Below the pieces are notes generated by a model. The model ran no database searches and was not told the DNA's origin. It saw nothing but the letters and a program-made list of their open reading frames with translations. DNA of 7,940 nucleotides from a virus (Duplodnaviria; Heunggongvirae; Uroviricota; Caudoviricetes), in IMG/VR virus record IMGVR_UViG_2778261527_000012. The stretch is one strand, 5' to 3'. Made by a program: the position numbers and the translations under genes. Shown here piece by piece: positions 3,068 through 7,940 of this stretch. The stretch's first letter is position 1; every line of letters starts with the position of its first letter.

Positions 3068-3532
3068 TTACTTTAAACACTGCTCGGTTATGTATTGCTG
3101 AGCACCTTCAAGTTGGGCCTGCATCATTACCAGTCGTTCCCGGAGGGTGAAATAATCCCGTTCAGCGGTGTCTGCCAGTCGGGGGGAGGCTGCATTATCC
3201 ACGCCGGAGGCGGTGGTGGCTTCACGCACTGACTGACAGACTGCTTTGATGTGCAACCGACGACGACCAGCGGCAACATCATCACGCAGAGCATCATTTT
3301 CAGCTTTCGCATCAGCTAACTCCTTCGTGTATTTTGCATCGAGCGCAGCAACATCACGCTGACGCATCTGCATGTCAGTAATTGCCGCGTTCGCCAGCTT
3401 CAGTTCTCTGGCATTTTTGTCGCGCTGGGCTTTGTAGGTAATGGCGTTATCACGGTAATGATTAACAGCCCATGACAGGCAGACGATGATGCAGATAACC
3501 AGAGCGGAGATAATCGCGGTTACTCTGTTCAT
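3068..3532 (-). CDS. Rz: Rz i-spanin (inner-membrane spanin subunit), 154 aa
   Basis: [102 protein letters not shown]... is near-identical to lambda Rz as I recall it: N-terminal TM anchor followed by a coiled-coil periplasmic domain. The ATG at 3532..3530 overlaps the R stop in an ATGA arrangement. The track's GTG start at 3544 is an upstream extension. Confidence 0.92.
3127..3312 (-). CDS. Rz1: Rz1 o-spanin (outer-membrane lipoprotein spanin subunit), 61 aa, embedded in Rz in the +1 frame
   Basis: [57 protein letters not shown]... has a lipoprotein signal peptide with lipobox VVGC and a proline-rich mature part, near-identical to lambda Rz1. It lies entirely inside Rz in another frame, the classic embedded spanin arrangement. 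Confidence 0.9.
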
Positions 3533-4026
3533 TGCTGACCCCACAAACAGATTTCACGCTCAATCTCACGACGAGTCATGAGACCTTTCCATTGCTTACC
3601 GCCAGCATATGTCCAGCGACGTAGCTGATCACATGCGCCTTTGATATCGCCCTGGTTTATTTTGCGAAGAAGCGTCGATGTTCTGAAATTGCCAGCACCC
3701 ACGTTGTAAACGAATGAGTAAAGAGCGCCGCGCGTTGTTTCCGGTATATCGACTTTGATGTACGGGTTAATTTGTCTGGCGACAGTGGCAAGGTCTTTAT
3801 TCAAGAGTGTTTTGCATTCTGCTTTGGTATACGTTTTACCGAGCATGATGTCTTTTCCTGTATGCCCGTGACATACAGTCCATACACCAACAATATCTTT
3901 GTATGGTATGTAGCTGACACCTTCCAGACCATCGTTACCACTTGGGCCAGTGATTAACACTGATGCTATAGCAATTGCTCCGCCACCAATAGCAGCAGCA
4001 ACGGCTTTTCGTAATGATGGAGGCAT
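3529..4026 (-). CDS. R: SAR endolysin (phage-21 R-type lysozyme with N-terminal signal-arrest-release domain), 165 aa
   Basis: The N-terminus [27 protein letters not shown] is a Gly/Ala-rich weakly hydrophobic SAR segment, followed by a T4-lysozyme-like catalytic region ([24 protein letters not shown]; E-x8-D-x5-T pattern). The sequence matches my recollection of phage 21 R almost residue for residue. Its start overlaps the S stop (TAATG at 4028..4024). Confidence 0.93.
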
Positions 4027-4241
4027 TATTCACCTCTCGCAGCCTTGCGCTTATCTTCTTTAATCTTGAAATAAAGGTTTGTCAGGTACGTCAGCAGGCC
4101 AAATACCAGACTACCCAGCACACCGATTGCAGCCCACTGTGACGGAGTTACTCTATCGAGCAACTGTAAAAACCAGTAGCCAGCACTGCCTGCGGAGGTG
4201 CCGTAGGCAATGCCTGTTGAAATTTTGTCCATGGATTTCAT
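4026..4241 (-). CDS. S: Class II pinholin, phage-21 S-type, 71 aa, with dual-start motif (antiholin from M1, holin from M4)
   Basis: [71 protein letters not shown] has two TM segments and a charged C-terminus. The Met-Lys-Ser-Met dual start (ATG 4241 and ATG 4232) is as in S21. A GGAGGTGAGG Shine-Dalgarno lies 4-13 nt upstream of ATG 4241. The track's 90-aa version (start 4298) is a spurious upstream extension. Confidence 0.9.
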
Positions 4242-4340
4242 AGCCTCACCTCCGCACGGAACGGATGGCATAGTTATTATGTGTAGGCTTTCAGACACAT
4301 CAATCAGAGCCTTAATTGATATATATGCTGGAGACGATGC

Positions 4341-4367
4341 AATATAAAAAGCTCGCCGTAGCGAGCT
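4341..4367 (-). terminator. Rho-independent terminator downstream of the second TolA-like lipoprotein gene
   Basis: Minus-strand RNA: AGCUCGC-UACG-GCGAGCU (7-bp GC-rich stem, 4-nt loop) followed by UUUUUAUAUU. On the plus strand the hairpin is followed by TAATAAAAT, so it is effectively unidirectional for minus-strand transcripts. Confidence 0.6.
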
Positions 4368-4492: not shown

Positions 4493-4888
4493 CTAACCTC
4501 GCATGTCAAAGCCAGATTTCTGAAAATCTCTGTAGACTTCCGGATTGTTGAAGGCCGGAAATTTGGCTTTATGAGCTGCGGACTTTATCGCTTCGCAATA
4601 GGCTTTATCACCGTTACTGGTAGATATTTTTAACGCCGTGCCATCCTGAGAGAATTCCATATGCAACCTGCATTTTTTCCCTTTCCAGTTATGCGGCTCA
4701 TCAAGTTTGGCATTAATTGCAGCTCTGATTCCCCGCGCTTGCGCCCCCCATTCATCCTGATCATCCCAGCGTCCTGAACTGCAACTACCTGTAGCAGTAG
4801 TTTTGTGGCAATCTGAAGGGTGTAAAGGTGTGCATCCCGCAACAAAACCGACCCAAAAAGTCAACATAACGATTTTCTTTAATCCCAC
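4493..4888 (-). CDS. Lipoprotein with TolA C-terminal (domain III)-like domain, 131 aa (paralog 2, more divergent)
   Basis: GTG start preceded by a GAGGAG Shine-Dalgarno. Signal peptide MGLKKIVMLTFWVGFVAGC with lipobox VAG-C. The C-terminal ~80 aa (GIRAAINAKLDEPHNWKGKKCRLHMEFSQDGTALKISTSNGDKAYCEAIKSAAHKAKFPAFNNPEVYRDFQKSGFDM) align in pattern with the other paralog and with the C-terminus of TolA as I recall it, including the two conserved Cys. There is an extra Cys-rich linker (CTPLHPSDCHKTTATGSCSS). Confidence 0.7.
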   Translation of the reverse strand: MGLKKIVMLTFWVGFVAGCTPLHPSDCHKTTATGSCSSGRWDDQDEWGAQARGIRAAINAKLDEPHNWKGKKCRLHMEFSQDGTALKISTSNGDKAYCEAIKSAAHKAKFPAFNNPEVYRDFQKSGFDMRG

Positions 4889-5038
4889 TTCTTGCTCCTC
4901 AATCCATTAAAATCTCAGCAATAGTAGTTGTTACGTCCGCCACTGGCTCAGAGCTGACTATCCGCTAAATTTAGCTCAGTGCCGTAGCTGTGTCAGAACA
5001 AACCTAAGCCGAAACCGTTTATTACAAAACAATAAATA

Positions 5039-5467
5039 TCAGGGTTTAAAATCCAGCACCCCATTTTGAAATACTTTATATACTTCCGGCGAAGGGGGGG
5101 CAGGTATATCAGCATTCTTTATCGCATTCATCGCTTCACGACATAAATCGAGGTCTCCACTTTCTCTTTTAACCTCCAGTAGAAGGCCATTCGGGGCCAT
5201 ATGCATTCTCAGTGTACACTCTTTTCCTGAATACTTACTCGCATCCCCGAACTGTTTTTCGATGGCGCTCTTGATTTGATGGGCATACAGACGGATATCC
5301 TCACTAACATCAGAAGTACGTTCAGATGAACTCACATACTGTGTCTCTATTGCTTTATCGGAGTAATATGATGTACGGTCATGATAATTTGTCGATACAG
5401 CATCAGTGCACCCGATAATAATCCCACTAATAATCAACGTAAGAATTGATGCGCTACGAAAACCCAT
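5039..5467 (-). CDS. Lipoprotein with TolA C-terminal (domain III)-like domain, 142 aa (paralog 1)
   Basis: ATG start with a GAGGAAAA Shine-Dalgarno 5 nt upstream. Signal peptide MGFRSASILTLIISGIIIGC with lipobox IIG-C. The C-terminal domain YAHQIKSAIEKQFGDASKYSGKECTLRMHMAPNGLLLEVKRESGDLDLCREAMNAIKNADIPAPPSPEVYKVFQNGVLDFKP closely parallels the E. coli TolA C-terminus as I recall it (...YAGQIKSAIESKFYDASSYAGKTCTLRIKLAPDGMLLDIKPEGGDPALCQAALAAAKLAKIPKPPSQAVYEVFKNAPLDFKP). The identity is from memory and not computed. Confidence 0.8.
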   Translation of the reverse strand: MGFRSASILTLIISGIIIGCTDAVSTNYHDRTSYYSDKAIETQYVSSSERTSDVSEDIRLYAHQIKSAIEKQFGDASKYSGKECTLRMHMAPNGLLLEVKRESGDLDLCREAMNAIKNADIPAPPSPEVYKVFQNGVLDFKP

Positions 5468-5496
5468 TTTTCCTCACATATGTCATATAGTAAAGG

Positions 5497-5526
5497 ATTA
5501 TATATACCGTTGTTTTGGACGCTCAA
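5497..5526 (-). promoter_or_regulatory. Candidate sigma70 promoter for the TolA-like lipoprotein cassette
   Basis: Minus strand: TTGAGC (plus 5526..5521), an 18-nt spacer, then TATAAT (plus 5502..5497) within a TATATATAAT run, about 30 nt upstream of the lipoprotein-1 ATG. The 18-nt spacing is slightly long; alternative registers give 16-17 nt. Confidence 0.45.
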
Positions 5527-6055
5527 ACAGCGAATCAGATCAAATAAAACGCACATTTGTTAACATTTACACAAAGTCTGCGTGGGATATTCTGAAAGAA
5601 TATCCATAATGTGGAGAGAATCTATTGAAGTGCATGGTGCCGGGTGCCTCCCGGTGAACAAAATGTTCGTGATACCTGTCGGCGACAGAAAAGGTTAATG
5701 GTATCACCCCACCGCACAGGGGGATTCACCATGCAGGAGTTTTCTTAGCAAACTCACTGCGCGCCCGGCAACTCCCAACCACATAAAATGCGGAGTTTGT
5801 GGTATTTATGCATATAACTCGCAGGAATTATCTTAAAAAACTGATGTCGATCCGGATTAAAAAGAAGCAGGTCATCATCAGATGACTGGAAAAAAGGAAA
5901 ACAAAAAATACTCATCATACAGTTTTGATTGCAGGGATGAGCCTGCTATGCACAATATGCAGAATATAAGCAAGATAAAAATATGCAGGCATATTATTTC
6001 GGATTTTGTTATTAACACAACCTTTTTAATAATCATTTGGCATACAATAAACCAG

Positions 6056-6084
6056 CCCAAAAAGAACCGCCTAAACAGGCGGTT
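6056..6084 (-). terminator. Rho-independent terminator (minus-strand transcripts)
   Basis: Minus-strand RNA: AACCGCC-UGUUUA-GGCGGUU (7-bp stem) followed by CUUUUUGGG. The plus-strand reading lacks a T-tract. Confidence 0.6.
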
Positions 6085-6404
6085 GGTCAATACAAAGGAT
6101 GCTTCGTCTTTATTATAGTAATCTGAGGCGTCGGGTGTCTTGTATCAGACAACATATTGTCCCGCTAAACAGCGAATTACAAACCACCCTGCAATGATCT
6201 CTCATCTCATTTTATATGAGTTGACGACATCAGGATAACGCATCATCAGCCCCTGCCAAGAAATATCAAAACTCCCGCCAGCAATGTGTTATCACAATAT
6301 TGTAAAAAAAACACAGCACCGAAACTATAACTGGTCTCTGTTATAATTTGGAGCAGAAAGACCAGTTGCCCAACTAGCAGCATTCTCCCCTGCTTTCCTG
6401 ACGT

Positions 6405-6431
6405 AAAAAAACCGCATTAAGCGGTTTTTTT
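6405..6431. terminator. Symmetric bidirectional intrinsic terminator about 80 nt downstream of the Q stop (candidate tR'-type terminator)
   Basis: AAAAAAACCGC-ATTAA-GCGGTTTTTTT: a CCGC/GCGG stem flanked by A7 and T7, so either strand gives a hairpin followed by a 7-U tract. Confidence 0.65.
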
Positions 6432-6511: not shown

Positions 6512-7054
6512 TCAAGCCATTTTCTCAGCAAATGATTCACGCATGGGAATATATAGGGCATACTCAGCAACAGCTAACCAATTAGCAATCCGTTTTTCGC
6601 ATGTGCTAAAACACCACTCTGGGTGTGCATCATTTAGCAATTCAGCCATTTTGCGCTTAGTCATCCCCCGCCCTTCATAGCGTTGCCGGAGAATGCAAAT
6701 CAATCCTGGATGCTCTGCCAGCACCTCACTTATGACTCGATCAATACATAACGCCTCTGCATCAGTACAATGCGCCAGCCAGCTCTTTTGCTTGCCGTTG
6801 ATCATCTCTCGCAAAAACGCTTCCAGCTCAGCTTTCTCTATTCCCGCTTTTTTCATTCTGCGCAGGGCTTCATTAATGGCTGTTTTCGTCAGTTTTTTGG
6901 ATGCCAACAACTGATTGAACATATTCCCTGACCTGCCACCGCCAATATACGACCAGCGCCCCCACATACGTAGTTTTCCCTGAATCCAGACACTTTCCAG
7001 CGTGGTGAGGCGAAGGTGTTCTCCGCTTTTTCCTGTATTCGTTGGGTAAATCAT
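6512..7054 (-). CDS. Late-gene antitermination protein Q-like, 180 aa
   Basis: It is the last gene of the nin-type operon and directly precedes the terminator and lysis region, which is the canonical Q position in lambdoid genomes. Size is right and it has a C-terminal Cys cluster (HCTDAEALC ... WCFSTCEKR) compatible with a Zn-binding element. Its start overlaps the upstream gene's stop (ATGA at 7054..7051). The call rests on position plus general resemblance, not a verified alignment; which Q family (21, 82 or lambda type) is undetermined. Confidence 0.65.
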   Translation of the reverse strand: MIYPTNTGKSGEHLRLTTLESVWIQGKLRMWGRWSYIGGGRSGNMFNQLLASKKLTKTAINEALRRMKKAGIEKAELEAFLREMINGKQKSWLAHCTDAEALCIDRVISEVLAEHPGLICILRQRYEGRGMTKRKMAELLNDAHPEWCFSTCEKRIANWLAVAEYALYIPMRESFAEKMA

Positions 7055-7341
7055 AAATGACCTTTCTTTCTCCAGATTTCTTGTGTGCGAAAAACCCCTT
7101 CAGCATGCATCAGGCGCAGTTCTTCTTTGGTGTAATCGCTGGTTTTTACCCGCCCGTCGATTAGATCGTGGCATGAGCTACAGGCTATCGCCGCCTGCAT
7201 ATCGTGTGGTTTTGTCGCTGTTCCGCACGTCCCCGCCAGCCTGTAATGCGCCAGCACAGAGGTTTCGGGATTGTGATTGCAGTAGCCAGGGATTCTGATC
7301 TGGCACATCTGGCCTTTAGCCGCTTTACGTAAATTCACCAT
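7051..7341 (-). CDS. DUF1364 family protein (YbcO-like, putative Zn-binding nuclease), 96 aa
   Basis: MVNLRKAAKGQMCQIRIPGYCNHNPETSVLAHYRLAGTCGTATKPHDMQAAIACSSCHDLIDGR... closely resembles E. coli DLP12 YbcO as I recall it (CQVRIPGVCNGNPETSVLAH ... IACSACHD), with conserved Cys/His positions. It is translationally coupled on both sides (TAATG with the upstream gene, ATGA with Q). Confidence 0.8.
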   Translation of the reverse strand: MVNLRKAAKGQMCQIRIPGYCNHNPETSVLAHYRLAGTCGTATKPHDMQAAIACSSCHDLIDGRVKTSDYTKEELRLMHAEGVFRTQEIWRKKGHL

Positions 7342-7940
7342 TACGCAAACTCCAGTAGTTGTGCGGCCACATTTTCAACTTCCTCCTGAGAGGAGAATTT
7401 ACGAAACAGAATCCAGTTCCACAGCACATTCAGTACAGATTTATAAACCTGCTGAAACTCGACTTCGTCCATATTCGCAAAAGCGATGGATTTTGCCCGA
7501 CGCCCACGGCTACCGTCCGGATAAATATGCTCGGTGTAAAATCCGGCCTGAATGGTTACCCACTCGCGGAAAGCCTCAAACGACTTTAGCAACGCCGTAT
7601 CCCGGGTTCTACGAGTCGCAACGGTGTTAAGGTATTGCTCTGCGGCATCACTCAGGGCTGGCGTGTGTTCCCGACCAACTGATTCGCACAGGTAATCAAC
7701 GAAACCAGACAGCAGTTCTCGTTCGCGAGGCGTGATCGCCCCACCGACCGGAGTCCAGTAATCGAATCCCAGTTGCAGGAGTTTGAAAAAACGCTTGTGG
7801 AATGCGTAGTTACGCACACGCTTAAAGTCTGCGTGTATCCACTCACCTATTTTGATTTGATGCAGAAAATCGCAACTCTCCGGCGTCGCCGGGAGAAGTA
7901 AACCAGAAGAAGTTTGTTTGACCAGTTGTATATGCGCCAT
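7341..7940 (-). CDS. Lambdoid nin-region protein, probably DUF1367 family (YdfU-like), at least 199 aa
   Basis: Long ORF with typical E. coli codon usage whose stop overlaps the start of the DUF1364 gene. The ATG is formed by the last three bases of the window, so the true start may lie beyond the window. Family assignment is from recollection of gene order in Qin/Rac-type prophages, not from a verified alignment. Confidence 0.55.
   Translation of the reverse strand: MAHIQLVKQTSSGLLLPATPESCDFLHQIKIGEWIHADFKRVRNYAFHKRFFKLLQLGFDYWTPVGGAITPRERELLSGFVDYLCESVGREHTPALSDAAEQYLNTVATRRTRDTALLKSFEAFREWVTIQAGFYTEHIYPDGSRGRRAKSIAFANMDEVEFQQVYKSVLNVLWNWILFRKFSSQEEVENVAAQLLEFA

Follow-up and report, generated by a model that had tools for sequence, protein, structure and literature searches.

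Two prophage lipoproteins built on the TolA C-terminal domain are candidate decoys for Tol-dependent colicins and filamentous phages

The window analyzed here is a stretch of 7,940 nucleotides (nt) of Caudoviricetes DNA (IMG/VR record IMGVR_UViG_2778261527_000012). Between a Q-like antiterminator gene and a phage-21-type lysis cassette it carries two genes, here called A and B. Each encodes a predicted outer-membrane lipoprotein made of a signal peptide, a linker and one domain that resembles domain III of host TolA (TolAIII), the C-terminal docking domain of that protein. Judged by sequence, both belong to a large family of stand-alone TolA C-terminal domain (TolA-C) lipoproteins. We propose that they could serve as unenergised, outer-membrane-tethered decoys for Tol-dependent colicins and filamentous phages, a reading to which we assign a probability of roughly 0.45. 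Both open reading frames of the initial annotation, which was made from the letters of the window, are present on the (-) strand, and the "paralog 1" of that annotation is A, the gene nearer Q. Their features are:

5039-5467, (-) strand: gene A, predicted outer-membrane lipoprotein of 142 amino acids (aa) (Pfam, PDB, AlphaFold2 (AF2), PROSITE PS51257)
5408-5410, (-) strand: codon of Cys20 in the A lipobox, IIGC (agrees with the PS51257 rule)
A residues 21-51: disordered linker rich in Ser, Thr and Tyr (AF2 predicted local distance difference test score (pLDDT) <50)
5042-5314, (-) strand, A residues 52-142: TolAIII-like domain (AF2 pLDDT >90)
4493-4888, (-) strand: gene B, predicted outer-membrane lipoprotein of 131 aa (Pfam, AF2, PS51257)
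4832-4834, (-) strand: codon of Cys19 in the B lipobox, VAGC (agrees with the PS51257 rule)
4769-4831, (-) strand, B residues 20-40: linker, predicted to be disordered, with two extra Cys
4496-4768, (-) strand, B residues 41-131: TolAIII-like domain (AF2 pLDDT >90)

The likeness to TolA that had been read from the letters is borne out by profile searches and by predicted structure. Both proteins score above the 25-bit gathering threshold of the Pfam family PF06519 (TolA C-terminal), A with 82.6 bits (E=2.4e-23, residues 49-140) and B with 54.6 bits (E=1.3e-14, residues 44-125). In a phmmer search of PDB sequences, A aligns without gaps to E. coli TolA 334-421 (E=5e-28). Identity to E. coli TolAIII is 60% for A (over 86 aa) and 34% for B (over 77 aa). 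When the AF2 models were compared with known structures in Foldseek, the best match of A was E. coli TolAIII (2x9a_B), with a root-mean-square deviation (rmsd) of 0.6 Å and a target TM-score (TMt) of 0.95. The B model lies 1.1 Å from E. coli TolAIII in 3qdp (TMt 0.89), and its best matches overall are E. coli TolAIII structures at 1.0-1.1 Å (TMt 0.85-0.89). TonB C-terminal domains matched the models only at E >0.01, far below TolAIII, and Pfam found only TolA/TonB-type domains in A and B. The cysteine spacing noted at the outset is also real: 25 residues separate the pair in A (C84/C109), in B (C73/C98) and in TolA (C363/C388), and the pair is invariant in the family alignment (A2). The C-terminus of A reads ...PEVYKVFQNGVLDFKP.

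The lipoprotein signals stand up equally well. PS51257 asks for a positive n-region, an uncharged h-region, the lipobox [LIVMFWSTAG](2)-[LIVMFYSTAGCQ]-[AGS]-C and a Cys at 15-35, and both A (Cys20) and B (Cys19) conform to it. The lipobox Cys is invariant across 19 family members. The residue at +2 is Thr in A and B, and no family member has Asp there. Lipoproteins of E. coli without Asp at +2 are sorted by the Lol system to the outer membrane, and A and B are predicted to be anchored there because Thr follows the lipid-bearing Cys. Gene A starts with ATG, with GAGGAAAA just 5' as a ribosome-binding site. Gene B starts with GTG at 4888, with a GAGGAG ribosome-binding site 5' and an n-region MGLKK, and a plasmid orthologue of B has ATG at the matching codon. 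RefSeq places the start of B at a later ATG, which shortens the leader before the Cys to 11 residues, none of them charged. This start looks like an annotation error, most of the signal peptide being lost, and needs correction.

A and B differ from TolA proper. The full-length architecture, with an N-terminal membrane anchor and a long helical domain II, is absent, and matches to the TolA NCBIfam models cover only positions 293-386 (A) and 304-382 (B) of 387. Both proteins fall below the cutoff of 213 for the TolA equivalog NF007065 (A 107.8, B 53.7). Against TIGR02794 (cutoff 59.45) B fails with 47.2, and A passes with 75.6 solely through a C-terminal local match. The genes also lie outside a tolQRA-tolB-pal operon, their neighbors being the Q-like gene and the phage lysis cassette. 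Both proteins match PHROG 5772, a group without assigned function, over its full length (A, E=1.6e-62; B, E=6.7e-65); this and "TolA C-terminal domain-containing protein" are the existing database labels. The initial annotation knew of no characterized function for such proteins, and full-text literature searches likewise gave no functional study, only incidental annotations. A known defence system was considered as the identity of A and B and rejected, there being no PADLOC match.

Purifying selection acts on both genes. The domain of A has a ratio of nonsynonymous to synonymous substitution rates (dN/dS) of 0.09-0.34, and the A-type variants, which are 91% and 66% identical, still have 142 codons, the Cys of the lipobox and the pair of Cys. 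Comparison of B with its plasmid orthologue gives a dN/dS of 0.08-0.14 at a dS of about 0.5. RefSeq/PGAP lists A as a tolA pseudogene ("tolA, incomplete, missing N-terminus"), with only 261 nt retained. Because selection acts on both genes, and given the dN/dS, kept length and kept lipobox of A, we ruled out a tolA pseudogene; the RefSeq label, like the RefSeq start of B (both in L003 9194-10000), looks like an annotation error and needs correction.

TolA domain III in the host is the end of an inner-membrane arm driven by the proton motive force, and its ligands use two edges. Strand beta3 (A415-K420) is the docking site of ColN, g3p-N1 and the TolB N-terminus, by a beta-strand addition that is driven by the backbone, with hydrogen bonds to the main chain at D418 and K420 (PMC4339652, PMC7391070). 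ColA uses strand beta2 (L375-P380) and makes cation-pi contacts with K368, K379 and K396 (PMC3365938). The initial annotation had TolAIII engaging both TolB and Pal. Binding of TolB holds, at beta3 (PMC4339652); binding of Pal is disputed, as purified proteins show none (review PMC7391070). With residues of A numbered as TolA minus 279 and those of B as TolA minus 290, the edges compare as follows:

beta3: host TolA PLDFKP; A VLDFKP; B GFDMRG
beta2: host TolA LLDIKP; A LLEVKR; B ALKIST
K368/K379/K396: host TolA K/K/K; A H/K/K; B E/S/H

By this alignment A retains the beta3 edge and most of the ColA site. The beta3 strand of B has no proline and keeps the Asp and a basic residue. Because of the residues at beta2 and at the lysine positions, A probably keeps ColA binding and B probably does not.

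A decoy or a modulator of Tol-Pal had already been suggested in the initial annotation, and this idea is strengthened by the kept edges of A and by relatives on bacteriocin plasmids and beside secreted TonB-C-only proteins. The decoy proposal starts from the homology, fold, lipoprotein signal, kept binding edges, purifying selection and mobile-element spread reported here, and would add to them outer-membrane sorting, expression in the lysogen, ligand capture and tolerance. A and B would be cargo (moron) genes whose products each display a stand-alone TolA C-terminal docking domain under the outer membrane, on a flexible linker of about 20-30 residues that could span about 7-11 nm at full extension. 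Group A colicins and g3p have to catch TolA domain III by beta-strand addition for import. Because TolA domains I and II are absent, A and B cannot couple to TolQR, and the copies would trap translocation domains just past the outer membrane in a dead-end, unenergised complex. Tol-dependent colicins would thereby be tolerated by the lysogen, and Ff/If1-type phages possibly as well. Exported TolAIII reportedly also gives colicin tolerance. Parasitic ligands bind TolAIII with affinities of about 1-15 µM, whereas TolB binds it at 40-250 µM (PMC7391070, PMC3365938, PMC4339652), and because of this gap a modestly expressed mimic could catch invaders preferentially while TolB is not fully titrated. 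Periplasmic g3p-N1 sequesters TolA and so confers resistance to colicin A and phage (PMC10424213).

Small cargo lipoproteins of mobile elements, such as Cor and Llp (which block FhuA) and plasmid TraT, protect their carriers from incoming phages or DNA. These proteins have no sequence relationship to A and B, and the target of Cor and Llp is an outer-membrane receptor, whereas A and B copy a periplasmic host domain. Exclusion by g3p (PMC10424213) blocks Tol-dependent entry of colicins and phages at the interface between TolAIII and its ligand, as we propose for A and B, but its logic is opposite: g3p masks the host receptor, whereas A and B would imitate it and so catch the invader. Among known systems, the closest in function are Cor, Llp and the masking of TolA by g3p, neither kind of which copies a host periplasmic domain. 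E. coli TolA domain III itself (1TOL, 2X9A, 3QDP/3QDR, 1S62) shares with A and B three helices, a three-stranded sheet and the Cys pair. A, at the 60% identity given above, is near-identical to it at beta3 (LDFKP) and at the beta2 edge; B, at only 34%, lacks the ColA-contact lysines. Unlike TolA, A and B have a lipoprotein signal in place of transmembrane domain I and helical domain II, and they lie in a prophage rather than in the tol-pal operon. The engineered RBP-signal-TolAIII (Wan & Baneyx 1998; Levengood-Freyermuth 1993) is likewise a free, exported TolAIII, which perturbs Tol and causes leakage (PMC6195910), but it is artificial, soluble and over-expressed, whereas A and B are natural, diverged, predicted to be lipid-anchored and under selection. 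If A and B are decoys, they would be a common and overlooked cause of tolerance to group A colicins, klebicins and filamentous phages in natural isolates, and defence by copying a host periplasmic domain would join the known exclusion strategies. This would bear on bacteriocin and phage therapeutics, on competition between gut strains and on the self-protection of plasmids from pilus-specific phages.

The initial annotation took A and B for tandem paralogs that had diversified in place, and this part of it fell. Identity between A and B is about 28%, against 60% between A and host TolA, and A is found alone elsewhere; a recent tandem duplication was rejected on the same grounds. A-type genes without B occur in other prophages behind a DUF1133 or a PF03589 antiterminator and before an S21-type holin. 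The homology of the window to these A-only prophages runs from 5844 down to exactly the stop codon of A, at 5038. This segment (5038-5844, A with its upstream element) is 94% shared with them and recurs behind the two antiterminator types, which are unrelated. Because A occurs alone and the homology stops at its stop codon, B looks like a separate acquisition placed 3' of A. In the A-only prophages L008-L010 (6430-7895), about 1.4 kb 3' of A has no called gene. The A-B block of phage mEp460_ev081 (L211) lies behind a 273-aa protein annotated as antitermination protein Q, which differs from that of the window. Lambdoid morons are recognized as insertions between conserved modules whose boundaries become visible by comparison, and this is what we found here.

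Once formed, the A-B pair has been stable. IMG/VR holds 127 matches to A and 125 to B, mostly on common contigs, and 786 records contain the module at an identity of 99% or higher. The 1.4-kb A-B stretch is covered to at least 80% in 772 of 5,426 complete E. coli genomes, so the module is present in about one-seventh of them.

B belongs to a lineage of its own (370 clusters at 78-89% identity) and is 88% identical to a gene on IncI-complex plasmids. This orthologue is found on about 600 IncI1/B/O/K/Z plasmids. There (L001/L002 5004-5435) it lies about 70 nt 3' of an annotated nikB-type relaxase gene and on the strand of that gene, is convergent with trbC and may share a transcript with the relaxosome genes. 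Phage IF1, which uses the I-pilus, has a g3p that takes TolA-C as its coreceptor (PDB 2x9a), and the presence of B on IncI-complex plasmids would fit protection against I-pilus filamentous phages. The lineage is also chromosomal in Enterobacter, Citrobacter, Klebsiella, Raoultella, Leclercia, Kluyvera, Yokenella, Buttiauxella, Pantoea, Rouxiella and Serratia. A search for a conserved chromosomal neighborhood of B found none across 33 genomes, where only a glutathione-peroxidase gene recurs (in 4); because its neighborhoods are not conserved, B behaves as an accessory gene. In Serratia marcescens (L015-L017 7001-9736) the B-type gene adjoins GmrSD-family and HEPN-domain genes, which looks like a defence-island context.

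The wider family is large. A profile search of 1.8 billion representative proteins gave 520 TolA-C matches at E<=1e-3. Of the best 150, 71 (about half) are 105-170 aa long, and 41 of these 71 pass the strict lipoprotein rule; from these counts, stand-alone TolA-C lipoproteins form a broad family. A related gene is carried by about 1,300 of 72,556 sequenced plasmids, and the family is enriched on bacteriocin plasmids, conjugative plasmids and prophages.

Some relatives sit beside bacteriocin genes. A 10,060-bp Klebsiella ColRNAI plasmid (L018, NZ_CP031718.1) has a tRNase klebicin gene together with genes for immunity and lysis. A divergent two-gene operon on this plasmid (1512-2245), whose genes overlap by 4 bp, specifies a TolA-C lipoprotein (lipobox LTAC) and a secreted protein with only a TonB_C domain. 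This pair occurs on about 380 plasmids. A TolA-C gene is likewise present on a 6.4-kb Enterobacter plasmid with a pore-forming colicin-like toxin. Like A and B, the Klebsiella and Enterobacter proteins combine a lipobox, a short linker and TolA-C and are carried by mobile elements. They differ from B in sequence (about 27-35% identity over 61-69% of its length, tblastn) and from the pair in the window in their links to bacteriocin operons and, in two cases, a secreted TonB_C partner, which the window lacks. On an unrelated 275-kb Klebsiella plasmid (L206 3574-4393) a secreted TonB_C gene lies directly 5' of a B-like TolA-C gene. On the IncR Klebsiella plasmid L019 (NZ_CP141857.1, 5217-6246) a TolA-C lipoprotein gene follows one for a secreted thioredoxin-fold (DsbA/TraF-like) protein, a pairing of possible relevance to the conserved Cys pair. 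The L019-type TolA-C protein has matches at 60-80% identity on about 300 large Klebsiella plasmids, of which one (L019) was inspected. A "TolA" gene and companion genes on a cloacin-like plasmid have been noted without interpretation (PMC10269471).

The obvious common property of TolA-C and TonB-C is that both are docking domains hijacked by bacteriocins and phages. A function connected with the two exploited import routes best explains why the two are repeatedly paired on mobile elements and why they are present on bacteriocin plasmids. We also entertain, more tentatively than the proposal for A and B themselves, the idea that stand-alone TolA-C (lipoprotein) and TonB-C (secreted) proteins are a widespread, unrecognized class of mobile-element defence by receptor mimicry. 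Such mimics would trap the translocation domains of bacteriocins and the pilot proteins of phages in the periplasm, before these reach the energised machinery. The class would take in the prophage A-B pair, the relaxase-adjacent gene of the IncI-complex plasmids and the TolA-C/TonB-C operon of the klebicin plasmid. Ligands would be divided, with A taking those of both beta2 and beta3 and B those of beta3 only.

The sequence around A and B holds several candidate signals for their expression:

5497-5526, (-) strand: sigma-70 promoter-like site (TTGAGC, 18-nt spacer, TATAAT; 10/12 in a consensus scan), about 30 nt 5' of the A start
4340-4367, (-) strand: terminator-like hairpin AGCTCGC-TACG-GCGAGCT with TTTTTAT, between B and the holin gene (scan and sequence reading)
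5578-5764, (-) strand: full-length STnc100-family prophage small RNA (sRNA) element (Rfam RF02076, 86.6 bits, E=4.6e-19; gathering score 47)
6112-6141, (-) strand: promoter-like site (AAGACA, 18-nt spacer, TATAAT; consensus scan)
6056-6084, (-) strand: short terminator-like hairpin about 25 nt after the 6112-6141 site (consensus scan)

The site at 5497-5526 is a possible moron promoter; the A-only prophages L008 and L009, whose antiterminators differ, have it too, apart from one change in the -10 hexamer. No terminator was found between A and B in the consensus scan. A terminator before the holin gene is what would be expected if the lysogen transcribed A and B independently of Q and had to keep that transcription out of the lysis genes; Q-modified polymerase would then read through 4340-4367 during lytic growth. 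By analogy with lambdoid phages, the signals at 6056-6141 are a candidate late promoter and terminator of the pR'/tR' kind, which would put A and B in the Q-dependent late transcript. Expression in both the lysogenic and the lytic state is thus plausible, and a role in lysis or release therefore remains alongside the decoy. The STnc100-family element lies just 5' of A and is co-inherited with it in prophages with differing antiterminators; STnc100 is a prophage sRNA related to PasD (bioRxiv 10.64898/2026.05.13.724894).

Several findings weigh against the decoy. A simple decoy does not account for the Cys-rich linker of B, which is nearly invariant across genera in the B lineage (CxPLHPSxCHKTTATGSCSSGRWDDQDEWG, alignment A2) and could be a partner-binding segment or a disulfide loop. 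The ColA-contact lysines are lost in B, and beta-strand addition depends mostly on the backbone, which makes side-chain conservation weak evidence for binding. Exported TolAIII makes E. coli leaky and releases periplasmic proteins (PMC6195910), so a constitutive copy could be costly, and this leakiness fits a role in lysis or release equally well. Chromosomal genes of the B lineage lie in unrelated neighborhoods with no visible link to bacteriocins or phages. PADLOC-DB v2 has no family that matches A or B at E<=1, and the promoter and terminator calls are consensus matches only.

The alternative that fares best, although we consider it unlikely, is interference with Tol-Pal. A and B, made mainly from the late transcript, would compete with host TolA for the TolB N-terminus, loosen the link that Pal makes between outer membrane and cell wall, and so either aid the spanins in breaching the outer membrane or increase the release of vesicles and phage; on bacteriocin plasmids the same activity would help toxin release. 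The gene order suits this, A and B being directly 5' of the holin-endolysin-spanin cassette and 3' of the pR'/tR'-like element, as do the beta3 edge of A, essentially identical to that of TolA at the TolB site, and the release (lysis) genes that accompany TolA-C on bacteriocin plasmids. Exported TolAIII causes release of periplasmic protein (PMC6195910), and tol mutants hyper-vesiculate (PMC7391070). On the other hand, the B lineage is common on chromosomes and on conjugative plasmids without lysis genes, the terminator before the holin gene and the promoter-like site before A suggest Q-independent expression, and the binding of TolAIII to TolB is weak (40-250 µM). The pairing with secreted TonB-C would also be left unexplained. 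If this alternative were true, A and B would be a phage accessory that weakens Tol-Pal at lysis.

We regard as less probable still that A and B are accessory envelope lipoproteins of a housekeeping type, normal outer-membrane partners of TolB or of another periplasmic protein in many Enterobacterales that the prophage and plasmids carry as host-fitness genes and might, for example, tune Pal mobilisation or outer-membrane stability under stress. The strong conservation of the B lineage on chromosomes of at least 10 genera (the 370 clusters at 78-89%) would agree with this, as would the size and diversity of the family of short TolA-C proteins (520 matches; 41 of 71 under the lipoprotein rule), and the conserved linker of B points to a specific partner. 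However, there is no synteny between genera, which fits a mobile accessory gene, and the enrichment of the family on bacteriocin plasmids, conjugative plasmids and prophages also speaks against such a role.

The idea that A is non-functional debris, a fragment of host tolA taken up by a phage, draws on the PGAP pseudogene mark and the C-terminal-only NF007065 match (107.8 against 213) and can be set aside as effectively refuted by the selection and conservation data, since A is an intact 142-aa reading frame with its own ribosome-binding site and lipoprotein signal, its 91% and 66% variants keep length, lipobox and Cys pair at the low domain dN/dS given above, its 60% identity to TolAIII is far outside the 77-87% between E. 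coli TolAIII and the two closest full-length TolA representatives, and the module recurs at the frequencies given above (786 records; 772 of 5,426 E. coli genomes).

The window comes from an E. coli lambdoid prophage, a mosaic of the Rac/DLP12/Qin type, and every gene in it is on the (-) strand. The other genes are:

7341-7940, (-) strand: DUF1367 gene
7051-7341, (-) strand: YbcO-family protein
6512-7054, (-) strand: Q-like antiterminator candidate, DUF1133 (PF06576, E=2.5e-107)
3068-4298, (-) strand: phage-21-type lysis cassette, 3' of A and B (open reading frame list and Pfam), comprising the next four genes
4026-4298, (-) strand: S21-type holin, probable start at 4241 (PF04971, E=4.5e-35)
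3529-4026, (-) strand: lysozyme with a hydrophobic N-terminus (PF00959, E=1.8e-45)
3068-3544, (-) strand: Rz (PF03245, E=3.7e-53)
3127-3312, (-) strand: Rz1, embedded in Rz (open reading frame list)
1473-2948, (-) strand: trkG (TrkG, potassium transporter), between Rz and the ynaK homologue
547-1335, (-) strand: ParB-like YnaK homologue

These assignments, from Pfam and the open reading frames, place A and B in the cargo slot between Q and the lysis genes, as the initial annotation had said. The DUF1133 protein is a borderline, weak match to PF06530, Phage_antitermQ (26.1 bits; cutoff 26). About 1 kb without convincing open reading frames separates the Q-like gene from A. A search of this gap between Q and S for tRNA genes, as in Stx phages, found none in the window. 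An A-run, hairpin and T-run lie at 6405-6430, just after the Q-like gene; an isrK-like RNA after Q was considered and rejected, its matches (21.6 and 20.1 bits; gathering score 50) coinciding with this simple hairpin. In the relative L006 an A-type gene is followed by genes for a nanS-like esterase, DUF1378 and DUF826, which we take to be genes known from Stx phages. RefSeq uses the names essD and rrrD in the lysis cassette. The trkG gene has a low G+C content (0.33-0.40) and is a second cargo gene of the window, in an arrangement like that of the Rac prophage.

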